A DNA stretch of 52,734 nt from the NCBI RefSeq assembly GCF_030651595.1, contig NZ_JAUSCH010000057.1:1-52734 (forward strand), written 5' to 3'. The position numbers and the translations under genes were made by a program. Origin of the DNA: Candidatus Oleimmundimicrobium sp. GTDB taxonomy: Bacteria; Actinomycetota; Aquicultoria; UBA3085; Oleimmundimicrobiaceae. This document shows, one piece after another, positions 16,570 to 33,013 of the stretch (the stretch's first letter is position 1; every line of letters starts with the position of its first letter). The notes beneath the pieces were generated by a model. The model saw only the letters and a program-made list of their open reading frames with translations, was not told the DNA's origin and ran no database searches.

Positions 16570-17172
16570 CTAAAAAAACATTAACTGTTCTGTAGTTTCT
16601 TCTTTTTGAGCCAATTTATCAACTTTGCTGCTTAACAACTCTTTAAGTATTAAAAAATCGGCCTTAAGCTTGTCGAGGTTGGTTCTTTGATATAAAGCCG
16701 CAGCTGGGTGATAGATAGGAAATATATAATAGCCGTTACCGTCAAAACACTTGCCCCGAACCTTTGAAATGGGAACATTTTTATCCAAAATAACCTGAGT
16801 CGCAAACCTACCAAGCGTGCAAACAACCTTGGGTTTAATTATCTCTATCTGTTTCAATAAAAATGGTTTACATGTTTCAATTTCACTCGGTAAAGGATCT
16901 CTGTTTTTGGGAGGCCTACATTTTAAAACGTTGGCAATATAAATTTGGTCTCTTACAAGTCCAATTGAGTCCAATAATTTATCAAGTAGCTTCCCCGCGG
17001 CACCCACAAAAGGTTTTCCCTGTATGTCCTCATTGCACCCAGGTGCTTCTCCCACAAACACCAAATCAGCATTTTCATTACCAGCTCCAAAAACAATGTT
17101 TGTCCTCGTTTTACCAAGAGAACACCTCTGACAATCTTTTAACTCTTCATAAAACTCCGCTAAAGTTTCCAC
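16570..17172 (-). CDS. Family-4 (Fe-S) uracil-DNA glycosylase
   Basis: [27 protein letters not shown] and YHPAA motifs; start reassigned to GTG at 17172 after AAGGAG because the upstream extension belongs to the FmdB gene. Confidence 0.92.
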
Positions 17173-17197
17173 CGAAAAGAAACACTCCTTTCTTAAT

Positions 17198-17413
17198 TTA
17201 ACTACAGCCATCACAACTGGAGGCCGAACAAGTGCCTCAGCTCGAAGCAACTCCGCCATTGGTCTCTCCTTTGAGACCAAAGCTGGAAAAGAGCTTTAAT
17301 ATATCCTTTGAGCCACAATGAGGGCATTTTAAATCATTGTTTTCTTTGCCCACACCAACGAGTAACTCAAATTTTTTATTACATTTCGAACATCTATATT
17401 CAAAAATAGGCAT
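17198..17413 (-). CDS. FmdB-family zinc-ribbon protein with in-frame UGA (candidate selenoprotein), 71 aa
   Basis: Manual translation MPIFEYRCSKCNKKFELLVGVGKENNDLKCPHCGSKDILKLFSSFGLKGETNGGVASS-UGA-GTCSASSCDGCS-UAA; AGGTGA RBS; UGA at 17239-17237; absent from the ORF track (58 aa before UGA). Confidence 0.85.
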
Positions 17414-17600
17414 CTTATCACCTTTTCAATTCTATCAATTTAACAAAAAAGCTGCAATTGATAGATTCCCGCGCCTTTAAATTATTAAATCTTCAATTTA
17501 AAAAACTATTAATTTAGCCATTTTTAAACTTTTAGGATTATAATTTATCTAAAGCTAAATAGACAATCAAATTAATTACAATAACTTAAGGAGGCAAACC

Positions 17601-17900
17601 GTGTCTTTTGAAAAGAAAAGAGAGATAAAAGTCAACTTTCCTGAAAGCATGCAAGGCGGAGTCTATACAAACAATACAATTATAACTCACACCAAAGAAG
17701 AGTTTATTATGGATTTTCTTATGGTTGCTCCCCCTTCTGGAGCAGTAACGGCCCGCGTCATCACCAGCCCGGGACACATGAAACGCATTCTTGCAGCTTT
17801 ACAAGAAAACATCTCTAAATATGAACAAAAATTTGGGGAAATCAAAGCTTCAGCGGCACCTATGGAAACTATCGGTTTTGTTCCGCCAACGAAGCATTAA
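17601..17900 (+). CDS. DUF3467 family protein
   Basis: GVYTN...HTKEEFIMDF...ARVITSPGHMKRILAALQENI..YE..FGEI; AGGAGG RBS. Confidence 0.85.
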   Translation: MSFEKKREIKVNFPESMQGGVYTNNTIITHTKEEFIMDFLMVAPPSGAVTARVITSPGHMKRILAALQENISKYEQKFGEIKASAAPMETIGFVPPTKH

Positions 17901-17950
17901 TTGATGGTTTAAGTGTTAGGAGAACGGATTAAAATAAACTACCACTAGCC

Positions 17951-18103
17951 AAATAGCCCGGCTTTACATCCTCGATAGCCAATGGCTCGCTCACTGCCAT
18001 TCGCTCAATAGCTAATAGTTCAAACCATCTGCTATATGCCATTCGCCATCAGCTAGTTGCCATATCATTTAAATACAAACTCTGGTCACCAGCTACCAGC
18101 CGC
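17951..18103. repeat. ~60-bp repeat element plus 7-bp repeat tract
   Basis: 17951-18012 closely matches 25482-25540; followed by CCATCTG CTATATG CCATTCG CCATCAG. Confidence 0.7.
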
Positions 18104-18104
18104 C

Positions 18105-18376
18105 AGGAAAATTAAAAGTATAAACTTTCATTGTTTTTATTTTTTAAACCCCGTGGGCCGGGTAGACAGCGACCCTCCAAAGGCGAGCAAGCCCTCCTGT
18201 GGCGGGTAAACATATGAGCACATTAACCTAATTTATATACCATATCATTTTTAGGCGTAAAAATAGGTTGTTCAGGAAGTGAGTTGAAGCTGTCTGACCC
18301 CGGAGTGAAACAAGGGGGAGTTCTGCCTGGTACAGGCCCGCATCGGGGGCAGGCGATCCAGAGCTGTTATCCGACC
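18105..18376 (+). repeat. Structured intergenic repeat module (MITE/REPIN-like)
   Basis: 18105-18179 matches 36395-36469 at 71/75 nt by eye; similarity continues through CATATGAGCAC and GGTTGTTCAGG..GAAGCTGT. Confidence 0.85.
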
Positions 18377-18391
18377 CACAAAAAAGAAATC

Positions 18392-31804: not shown

Positions 31805-33013
31805 CTAACAAACAGGATATTTGCCCTCGATAAGCTCTTGGCAAAATTCACTAATTGTAGAGAGTTCATGGTCAACTACATCTTTGATATCACCTGAAAT
31901 AGATTCAAGAGATACGCCCTTTTTTAAAACAACCTGAACCGAAGCCACCTTGGGCCTGTCTATAGGGCTTCCAATTTGGCTGCAAAGCCAAACATATACT
32001 TCTCTTATTCCCTCAACTCGAGTGTAAATTTCGTTGGCAATCTTATGTGTGAGAAAATTATATATTTTCCCCACATGGCTCACCGGATTCTTTCCGGCTG
32101 CCGCTTCAGTGCCCATCGGTCTGTTTAAGGAAATTACCCCGTTTACTCGATTCCCTCTACCCACTTCCCCGGAATCGGCATCTTCAGCCGACGTGCCCAA
32201 AACGGAAAGATAGATCCCATTCATTCCTCTTCCCCGAGTATCCAAAGTATTTAGCTCAGCATTTATTCTTTCCATTACATCAAAATTTCTCAAGAAATTC
32301 CCAAGATCTTCGGCTATCTCATCCTTTTTTGAAAAATAGTCTTTTTCACTCTTTATAAACCTAGAAATAAGCGGCATCGCCACAGTTAAATTAAGCTCAT
32401 TTTCCACTCGATAACCCATTACCTTTACATCTTCACCAGTTTCAGGAAATCTTTCTTTAAAATCTGAAGAGTTTAAATAGTTCTCCGTTTTTAAAACAAT
32501 CGACTCAGTTTTGGTAAGAGGAGCGTAACCTACAGCAGCCGACGTATCATTAGCCGGCAAGAGTTTATCGCTTCTTAAAAAAATCCCCGATAATTCCTCG
32601 GAGCTGGGATGGAGTTCAGAAAAATACTGCAAATCCTTTTCGGAATCCACAAATCTTAAGTTATCTGCTATCCAATCTTTGGCTGCTCGAACTGCTATCT
32701 CTTCAACCGGTATCTTTATGCCCTTGGCTTCAAAGGTCGCCCTATCTCCAATATAAAGCTTCATCGGACTTTTTACCCGTCCACCGCCAAATTTTCTCTC
32801 TACCTGGCCCGCGACTAAAAGCCCCTTATCGATATTGTGATGAAGAATTCTGCCAAAATTTTTTTGATACTCCTTCGATAGAACCACCGATATTTTTTCC
32901 ATGACCGCGTCACAAATTGAATCAGGATGGCCCTTGCCCTTTCTCTCTACTATCTCAACTTGGTGCTCAAAAACAGGCAAGCCGCTTAAACCCTCAATCA
33001 CAATATTTCGCAT
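31805..33013 (-). CDS. mat: Archaeal-type methionine adenosyltransferase (SAM synthetase)
   Basis: EIVERKGKGHPDSICD, HHNIDK, ANDTS.AVGYAP, GEDVKVMG, D.G.VGRGNR.NG.I and GKNPVSHVGKIYN motifs. Confidence 0.9.
   Translation of the reverse strand: MRNIVIEGLSGLPVFEHQVEIVERKGKGHPDSICDAVMEKISVVLSKEYQKNFGRILHHNIDKGLLVAGQVERKFGGGRVKSPMKLYIGDRATFEAKGIKIPVEEIAVRAAKDWIADNLRFVDSEKDLQYFSELHPSSEELSGIFLRSDKLLPANDTSAAVGYAPLTKTESIVLKTENYLNSSDFKERFPETGEDVKVMGYRVENELNLTVAMPLISRFIKSEKDYFSKKDEIAEDLGNFLRNFDVMERINAELNTLDTRGRGMNGIYLSVLGTSAEDADSGEVGRGNRVNGVISLNRPMGTEAAAGKNPVSHVGKIYNFLTHKIANEIYTRVEGIREVYVWLCSQIGSPIDRPKVASVQVVLKKGVSLESISGDIKDVVDHELSTISEFCQELIEGKYPVC

Follow-up and report, generated by a model that had tools for sequence, protein, structure and literature searches.

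A UGA codon at a conserved tail cysteine of an FmdB-family zinc ribbon gene from Candidatus Oleimmundimicrobium: candidate selenocysteine or recent truncation

We found that an FmdB-family zinc ribbon gene in the window (the whole 52.7-kb stretch of DNA that was analyzed) carries an in-frame UGA in place of the first cysteine of a conserved C-terminal C-x2-C-x4-C-x2-C tail. Judging from comparison of sequences, we tentatively favor decoding of this UGA (17239-17237, minus strand) as selenocysteine (Sec) at the first position of the tail knuckle, a reading to which we give slightly less than an even chance. Plain truncation is almost as likely. Sec is favored because the Cys/UGA pair falls at a conserved ligand, the tail is under selection in frame, the allele is real and fixed in several samples, a hairpin lies at the right spacing, and the family offers precedent. 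It is disfavored because the UGA is found in one species, the hairpin is weak and nonspecific, the window contains no sel genes or tRNA-Sec, and UGA is an ordinary stop there.

An FmdB gene with UGA at a conserved cysteine codon

The gene lies on the minus strand, with a Shine-Dalgarno sequence (AAGGTGA, 17418..17424, identified by eye) placed 4 nt 5' of an ATG at 17413-17411. This ATG opens a frame of 58 sense codons (17240..17413) encoding MPIFEYRCSKCNKKFELLVGVGKENNDLKCPHCGSKDILKLFSSFGLKGETNGGVASS, which ends in GGVASS and matches both TIGR02605 (E=2e-15) and PF09723 (E=4e-15) over cut-off. The frame is interrupted by the UGA (17237..17239), a candidate Sec codon or premature stop. It then continues for 12 codons (17201..17236; GGC ACT TGT TCG GCC TCC AGT TGT GAT GGC TGT AGT) that encode GTCSASSCDGCS, the remainder of the C-x2-C-x4-C-x2-C tail, and closes with TAA (17198..17200), where the read-through form would stop and where orthologs L005, L008, and L143 stop too.

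In a profile search, the N-terminal 50 residues scored 56.5 bits against TIGR02605 (cut-off, 31.3) and 55.8 bits against PF09723 (cut-off, 34.4). The ribbon runs M1-P-I-F-E-Y-R-C8-S-K-C11 ... C30-P-H-C33, with 18 residues between the CxxC pairs and a short Gly/Ser linker after the second. The initiator Met opens the domain and two CxxC motifs are present, as expected of the FmdB family, in which the motifs are about 17 residues apart. The sequence-only reading had described an FmdB-type gene with a ribosome-binding site, an MPIFEYRCxxC start, and a second CPHCG; the sequence is as claimed, and the profile scores confirm the family. As in TIGR02605 (CxxC_CxxC_SSSS), PF09723 (Zn_ribbon_8), and COG2331, the protein is small, starts with MP[IV][FY]EY-x-C-x2-C, has C-P-x-C-G about 18 residues on, and has a low-complexity tail. 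The TIGR02605 and PF09723 models span the ribbon only, whereas the Cys-rich tail is a subfamily feature, and it is the first Cys codon of this tail that is UGA in the window. The solved structures nearest to the window ribbon were the archaeal RNA polymerase Rpo12/P zinc ribbons (E=4e-5).

We recovered orthologs with matching synteny from JGI, ENA, Logan, and GTDB genomes (P0002/L005, L008, L143, L141, L001/L007, and L009). The codon aligned with the UGA was TGT or TGC in 7/7 related lineages recovered, and the alignment places it at the first Cys of the C-x2-C-x4-C-x2-C motif. The orthologs are 70 to 72 residues long, and after this Cys their tail reads [GST]-T-C-x-A-S-[SN]-C-[DN]-G-C. That the UGA takes the place of the first tail Cys had been proposed from the window alone; P0002, P0003, L008, L009, L141, and L143, all with TGT or TGC there, bear this out. 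We also sought homologs that combine a Cys aligned to the UGA with a conserved tail downstream, and found them in each of the seven lineages.

The relatives closest to the window are the Actinomycetota metagenome-assembled genomes CSMAG_2342 (Actinomycetes bacterium), Ca. Oleimmundimicrobium americanum UBA3085 (Ca. Aquicultoria), and SpSt-1170. The nearest relatives of the window species, with uracil-DNA glycosylases (UDGs) 83 to 85% identical to its own, all have Cys at the UGA codon. Four more diverged runs (X5, X6, X8, and X9) contained Cys-type relatives only or left the codon uncovered. A scan of metagenome contigs gave a broad sample of the FmdB family, in which known close relatives were absent among the matches listed. 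The C-x2-C-x4-C-x2-C tail is found in at least 38 distinct FmdB proteins of this sample, from Acidobacteriota, Nitrospirota, Actinomycetota, Sumerlaeota, and other groups, and many sampled FmdB proteins have no tail Cys at all. UGA at the window's tail position in another species was found in 0/7 close lineages and in 0/38 same-motif proteins among the matches listed.

This distribution bears on truncation. According to that reading, a recent nonsense mutation (TGT or TGC to TGA, one transversion) left a 58-residue product, ribbon plus nine linker residues, that lacks the knuckle, and the mutation is too young for the tail to have decayed. A single-species allele with Cys in all seven related lineages is consistent with this, and a ribbon-only protein may be tolerated, as many FmdB tails have no Cys. 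However, conservation of the tail motif in several phyla implies that its loss should carry a cost, and Mycobacterium tuberculosis Ruc cut back to its ribbon (residues 1-49) no longer acted as a chaperone (PMC7448276).

The TGA itself is real. Four sequencing runs, belonging to two studies (groundwater and subsurface), have Logan contigs that carry it, with 0 variants over 400 nt; the word depths of these identical contigs are about 14, 54, 4.5, and 12.7. One of the two Logan contigs encoding the 58-aa ORF is from run SRR34857729. Its recovery in four runs from two studies excludes an assembly or sequencing error. TGT or TGC in the reads at this site had been named beforehand as an outcome that would refute a Sec codon, and the contigs of all four runs read TGA with no variants. 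The identity of the four contigs over 400 nt also gives no sign of an old allele, a point for a recent truncation, whereas fixation of the allele in populations from two separate studies argues against one.

We also considered whether the organism uses a genetic code in which UGA is a sense codon (code 4 or code 25). We found that UGA is an ordinary stop that ends 11/54 long ORFs in the window, that table 11 gives long intact ORFs, and that no convincing case of an ORF broken by TGA exists elsewhere in the window. UGA ending 11 of 54 ORFs, together with the lack of another internal UGA, excludes code reassignment, and we rejected it. The normal use of UGA as a stop in window ORFs also counts toward truncation. 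Nothing specific speaks for an artifact or for reassignment; the one point in their favor is the origin of the window as a metagenomic contig (G+C content, 38.7%). This explanation of the TGA is effectively refuted.

Selection and folding downstream of the UGA

We compared the 12 tail codons of the window with those of L008, the nearest ortholog, and found 6 synonymous and 2 nonsynonymous differences (pN/pS, 0.10); for the ribbon, pN/pS against L008 was 0.22. Over the final 51 nt there are 11 differences, of which 4, 0, and 7 lie at the first, second, and third positions of FmdB codons. Read in either of the remaining frames, these 51 nt gave a pN/pS of ~1 or higher; one of those frames is that of the mechanical udg ORF beginning at TTG 17280. 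When read from a codon table, the window's own branch shows 4 synonymous and at most 2 nonsynonymous changes in the tail, the latter at sites that vary among orthologs. The window tail has 0 indels, keeps all three remaining Cys and the D-G pair, and shares its TAA with L005, L008, and L143.

These substitution patterns indicate that the tail after the UGA is under purifying selection in the FmdB frame. Since the changes on the window branch are predominantly synonymous, the tail appears to have been translated for most of a long branch. Either translation of the tail continues, through Sec insertion or read-through, or the stop is a late event on this branch. A nonsense mutation would have to fall within about the final third of the branch, which counts against truncation. 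We concluded that a recent nonsense mutation accounts for everything except the price of giving up a conserved motif, provided that the mutation is young. Preservation of the tail region as an N-terminal extension of udg was rejected, as pN/pS in the udg-extension frame is ~1.

If Sec is inserted, a SECIS element should follow the UGA, and the tail-coding sequence contains a SECIS-like hairpin (17205..17226, minus strand; -8.2 kcal/mol, z -1.7). A 5-bp stem leads to a 2x2 internal loop, above which a 2-bp apical helix closes a GUUG loop (17217-17214). Counted from the U of the UGA, the hairpin spans nt 14 to 35 and has G23/U24 in the apical loop. The SECIS of E. coli fdhF likewise lies directly 3' of its UGA with G/U at nt 23-24 in the apical loop, so the spacing is the same. 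In fdhF, four pairs close the loop and are followed by a bulged U17, whereas the window loop is closed by two pairs only and then a 2x2 internal loop. The sequence-only reading had named two weak hairpins (GAGGC/GCCTC and GCC-TC...GA-T-GGC). Both are present, and it is the second (17226-17205) that has the SECIS-like geometry.

Hairpins were scored with a script that required a loop of 3 to 7 nt containing GU, with its G 21 to 29 nt from the UGA. By this measure, 0.9% of all TGA trinucleotides in the window (n = 1663) do as well as the UGA of the FmdB gene. In a matched control scored from the first motif Cys codon, -8.2 kcal/mol or better was reached by 5/38 Cys-coding homologs (13%), and the nearest Cys orthologs scored from -7.9 to -8.2 kcal/mol. 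The matched control makes the SECIS evidence neutral: the hairpin has the right spacing but a poor apical stem and no specificity. A hairpin no better than those of Cys-coding homologs is what truncation would leave.

Without the scoring constraints, Cys orthologs form folds more stable than that of the window because their tail-coding sequence is palindromic. In L005, L008, and L143, the tail DNA (corresponding to window 17198-17250) is a near-perfect palindrome, ACAGCT TCC AGCTGT, and folds at -14 to -15 kcal/mol over 42 nt. The coding sequence of a Cys-rich tail forms hairpins regardless of Sec, which calls for caution with SECIS predictors. A search of the whole window against Rfam yielded 0 matches at the gathering threshold, and around the UGA no SECIS family matched at E<=10. 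We gave this negative result no weight, because Rfam also missed the strong hairpins of other FmdB genes described below.

UGA-tailed FmdB genes and the Sec machinery

The FmdB sample comprised 139 genes among the matches listed, 64 ending in TGA and 75 in TAA or TAG. In many of the 64 TGA-ended genes, 1 to 4 sense codons follow the TGA before a second stop (1 only in L078). We examined a set of 19 such UGA-tailed genes (L028, L038, L042, L061, L072, L075, L078, L079, L087, L090, L092, L105, L121, L122, L132, L133, and L137, and also L030 and L131). L028 lies on the complete Zixibacteria chromosome CP070777.1. Their endings include ...GFSuAG-stop, ...GRFTuATNN-stop, ...GPFTuGA-stop, and ...SFGuASC-stop, where u is the UGA; L133 ends U-A-S-C-stop. 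In others, a second TGA serves as the stop (...GGFTuAN, ...AGFTuAS, ...CGPSuGG, and ...CGPSuGH).

We found a hairpin with GU in its loop, the loop beginning 22 to 26 nt after the UGA, in 15/19 of these genes, with stabilities of -4.7 to -16 kcal/mol and no T-run after it. The loops are GUG, GGUC, GUC, GUU, or GGU. In contrast, none of the 75 control genes ended by TAA or TAG among the matches listed reaches -4.7 kcal/mol, the best being -4.4. The convincing hairpins have 5 to 10 continuous pairs, compared with the 2-bp apical helix in the window, which is thus weak at the place that SelB would bind.

Four of the genes come closest to the window gene. In L061, L072, L075, and L087, the protein ends C-x2-C-x4-C-G-P-S-UGA-G-[GH]-stop, which is the window motif with its fourth Cys replaced. 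The L061 group reads CGSCAATSCGPS-U-GH-stop, compared with CGSCAATSCSSCRGH-stop in L070 (...C-S-S-C-R-G-H-stop). Three of the four have 7- to 8-bp GU-loop hairpins at -11.5 to -16 kcal/mol; the loop of L087 is GGG, at -1.5.

From these comparisons, the use of Sec in FmdB tails seems genuine and repeated, and the UGA-tailed genes look to be a form of the family, not yet catalogued, that has Sec near the C terminus. This apparent recurrence raises the prior for the window gene, without proof. The UGA-tailed genes belong to the same family and likewise have a tail Cys changed to UGA, with the motif itself shared by the L061 group. They differ in that their UGA is 1 to 4 codons from the final stop and is followed by a strong GC-rich stem in the 3' untranslated region (UTR), whereas the window UGA precedes the stop by 13 codons, and its weak hairpin lies inside the coding sequence.

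By form, the UGA-tailed genes resemble the "UXX-star" C-terminal selenoproteins (NF041114 and NF041211). We found that 0/10 UGA-tailed FmdB proteins match the UXX-star or dual-CXXC models and that TIGR02605 is their only NCBIfam match. The window protein likewise has no match to NF041114, NF041211, or NF041197 at E<=0.01, and its UGA is 13 codons, not three residues, from the C terminus. We hypothesize that FmdB/Ruc-type zinc ribbon proteins may have exchanged Cys for Sec repeatedly in their Cys-rich tails, which would make these tails a hot spot of such exchange, an idea that we hold at somewhat less than even odds. According to this model, many lineages would carry an uncatalogued ...U-x-x(-x-x)-stop ending with a strong 3'-UTR SECIS, and the window gene would be a young conversion of the first Cys, its SECIS still emerging from the palindromic coding sequence of its Cys ancestors.

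Sec decoding would also require the Sec machinery. We found no selA, selB, selD, or tRNA-Sec in the 52.7-kb window, where ARAGORN reported 0 tRNAs and an NCBIfam scan of 29 window ORFs returned housekeeping genes only. That the machinery is not seen in the window is a further point for truncation. Three ORFs sized like selD-selA-selB were considered and rejected, as they are an Orr/alanine-racemase-like gene (below cut-off), glmM, and glmS. A query with E. coli SelA returned 120 enterobacterial proteins only and is uninformative on the window lineage. A search for literature on selenocysteine in OPB41, Aquicultoria, Ca. Oleimmundimicrobium, and related names found none.

The udg junction and the meaning of a tail Sec

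Downstream of the FmdB gene is udg (16570..17172, minus strand), which encodes a family-4 UDG (TIGR00758, E=2e-66), a class of enzyme known to carry 4Fe-4S. Its most likely start is GTG 17172, at a spacing of 12 nt from a Shine-Dalgarno sequence, AAGGAG (17190-17185). The window order is FmdB, udg, tsaE, with groES/groEL about 6 kb off, and orthologous loci have a nitroreductase gene, sometimes a DUF3467 gene, and then FmdB, udg, and tsaE. About 124 nt 5' of FmdB is a promoter-like site (TTGTCT-18-TATAAT, 17537..17566, minus strand), a sigma-70-like candidate that scored 10/12 in a consensus scan and is a consensus match only. No terminator-like site was found among FmdB, udg, and tsaE, and the three genes may be cotranscribed.

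The read-through gene had been described as running into udg. We found instead that it ends 25 nt before the likely udg start at GTG 17172, and in orthologs the gap between FmdB and udg is 12 to 20 nt (12 in L005 and L006, 16 in L001-L003 and L141, and 20 in L143). A gap of 12 to 20 nt suggests translational coupling. The long mechanical udg ORF from TTG 17280 did not hold up either, as it lies in a different frame that is not under selection.

Several side observations were made at this locus. At window 17170-17280, a small indel joins udg in frame to an upstream ORF (ATG 17211, ATG 17259, and TTG 17280) that overlaps the 3' end of FmdB, and gene callers give udg 229 to 236 aa in the window, compared with ~200. 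FmdB is followed by a family-4 UDG gene at 15/129 FmdB loci among the matches listed, beyond the window's clade too; the loci with this adjacency are window 16570-17413, L001-L003, L007-L009, L013, L037, L043, L063, L064, and L141-L144. The region between FmdB and the nitroreductase gene (17601-18391) holds a DUF3467 gene (17601-17900, plus strand) and ~490 nt with no convincing ORF. Both are also found in L143 and L005 and are absent from the Oleimmundimicrobium-like L001 and L141. Within it, L143 shares a conserved block of ~110 nt (~17929-18045) in which GCTATYGAG is repeated and for which Rfam gave 0 matches. Elsewhere, the window encodes an archaeal-type methionine adenosyltransferase (31805-33013, minus strand; NF003363 and PRK04439, E=7e-196) in otherwise bacterial, Actinomycetota-like surroundings.

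The udg junction bears on a further explanation, that the UGA is a functional stop. It could be a leaky stop, with near-cognate read-through producing two isoforms, or termination at 17237 could be followed by reinitiation of udg at ATG 17211, because the ancestral udg TTG start has been lost. The udg orthologs are 201 to 202 aa long and start with TTG, and the same codon is TCG in the window, where the spacing from the Shine-Dalgarno sequence to GTG has grown to 12 nt. Two ATG codons are available as alternative in-frame starts, one at 17211, which follows the UGA by 25 nt, and one at 17259, which has a good Shine-Dalgarno sequence (GGAG, 17269-17266) inside FmdB and was chosen in the Logan gene call, giving a UDG of 229 aa. 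A 70-nt fold (-18.2 kcal/mol, z -1.6) pairs the bases just 3' of the UGA with the udg Shine-Dalgarno sequence, but it barely beats shuffled sequences, 15/200 of which are as stable. Low-level read-through would also account for selection on the tail. However, the frame of a udg extension shows no selection, and orthologs provide no precedent for such an arrangement. We know of no indication that the UGA-G context is unusually leaky, which counts against a leaky stop. A remodeled udg start tied to the UGA is possible but unsupported, and we consider a functional stop unlikely.

The sequence-only reading had proposed a Sec-containing metal or redox protein next to an Fe-S glycosylase. The FmdB ribbon, the UGA at a conserved Cys, the selection on the tail, and the conserved adjacency to family-4 UDG uphold the setting of this proposal. 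The Sec decoding itself did not gain from a hairpin no better than those of Cys homologs, a window with no sel gene or tRNA-Sec, and the lack of a second species with the UGA.

If the UGA is decoded as Sec, the product would be a 71-residue FmdB/Ruc-type protein with a four-Cys zinc ribbon, a Gly/Ser linker, and a U-x2-C-x4-C-x2-C knuckle. SelB and Sec-tRNA would be recruited by the hairpin at 17226-17205 within the tail-coding sequence, with G23/U24 in its loop. The four-ligand tail could form a second metal-binding or redox-active site, and Sec would lower the pKa and redox potential of this site and so tune a thiol/selenol switch. Such a switch can be modeled on Ruc, in which oxidation of zinc-binding Cys activates a chaperone that needs its C-terminal tail.

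Ruc (Rv0991c) of M. tuberculosis, the one studied protein of this build, has a CxxC-N17-CxxC zinc ribbon of ~50 residues and a hydrophilic disordered tail, an architecture common in Actinobacteria (Becker et al. 2020; PMC7448276). Oxidation of its Cys activates a holdase chaperone function for which the tail is required (PMC7448276). Compared by description only, the window protein agrees with Ruc in having a four-Cys ribbon followed by a tail. The two differ in that the Ruc tail is Ser rich and has no Cys knuckle and in that Ruc is linked to chaperone genes and the window gene to udg and tsaE.

Whether the FmdB family is catalogued as a selenoprotein had been left as a question by the sequence-only reading. 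It has been a candidate since 2008, when 2 UGA reads against 807 Cys homologs were found in the GOS metagenome (Zhang & Gladyshev 2008; PMC2398784). The Sec of those sequences, MPIYEYSUQEUG and MPIYDYKCSNUG, is in the N-terminal CxxC knuckle, not in the tail (PMC2398784 supplement), and reviews from 2022 and 2026 still list FmdB without an accession (PMC9312934 and PMC13188914). The window gene is of the same family and also has an in-frame UGA at a CxxC metal-ligand Cys, known from two reads there and from one species here. Unlike the GOS sequences, it keeps all four ribbon Cys, and its UGA is 58 codons in, at the C-terminal knuckle.

Gene callers currently annotate the FmdB gene as a 58-residue protein, whichever reading holds, and if the UGA proves to be a truncation only, the finding is an ordinary one. 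If it is Sec, this would be the first FmdB-family selenoprotein on an assembled genomic locus, the catalogued cases being the two 2008 GOS reads with no accession, and the location of Sec would be new, in the C-terminal Cys knuckle instead of the ribbon. A Sec there would point to the knuckle as a site, redox or metal, in which the chemistry is important, which fits with Ruc as an oxidation-triggered chaperone. Its significance would be moderate, as a tail-Sec variant of a catalogued but thinly documented selenoprotein family that matters mainly to selenoproteome specialists. Together with the UGA-tailed FmdB genes found elsewhere, the window gene would then make this small protein, which is widespread, a system for comparing Cys/Sec exchange among several positions.
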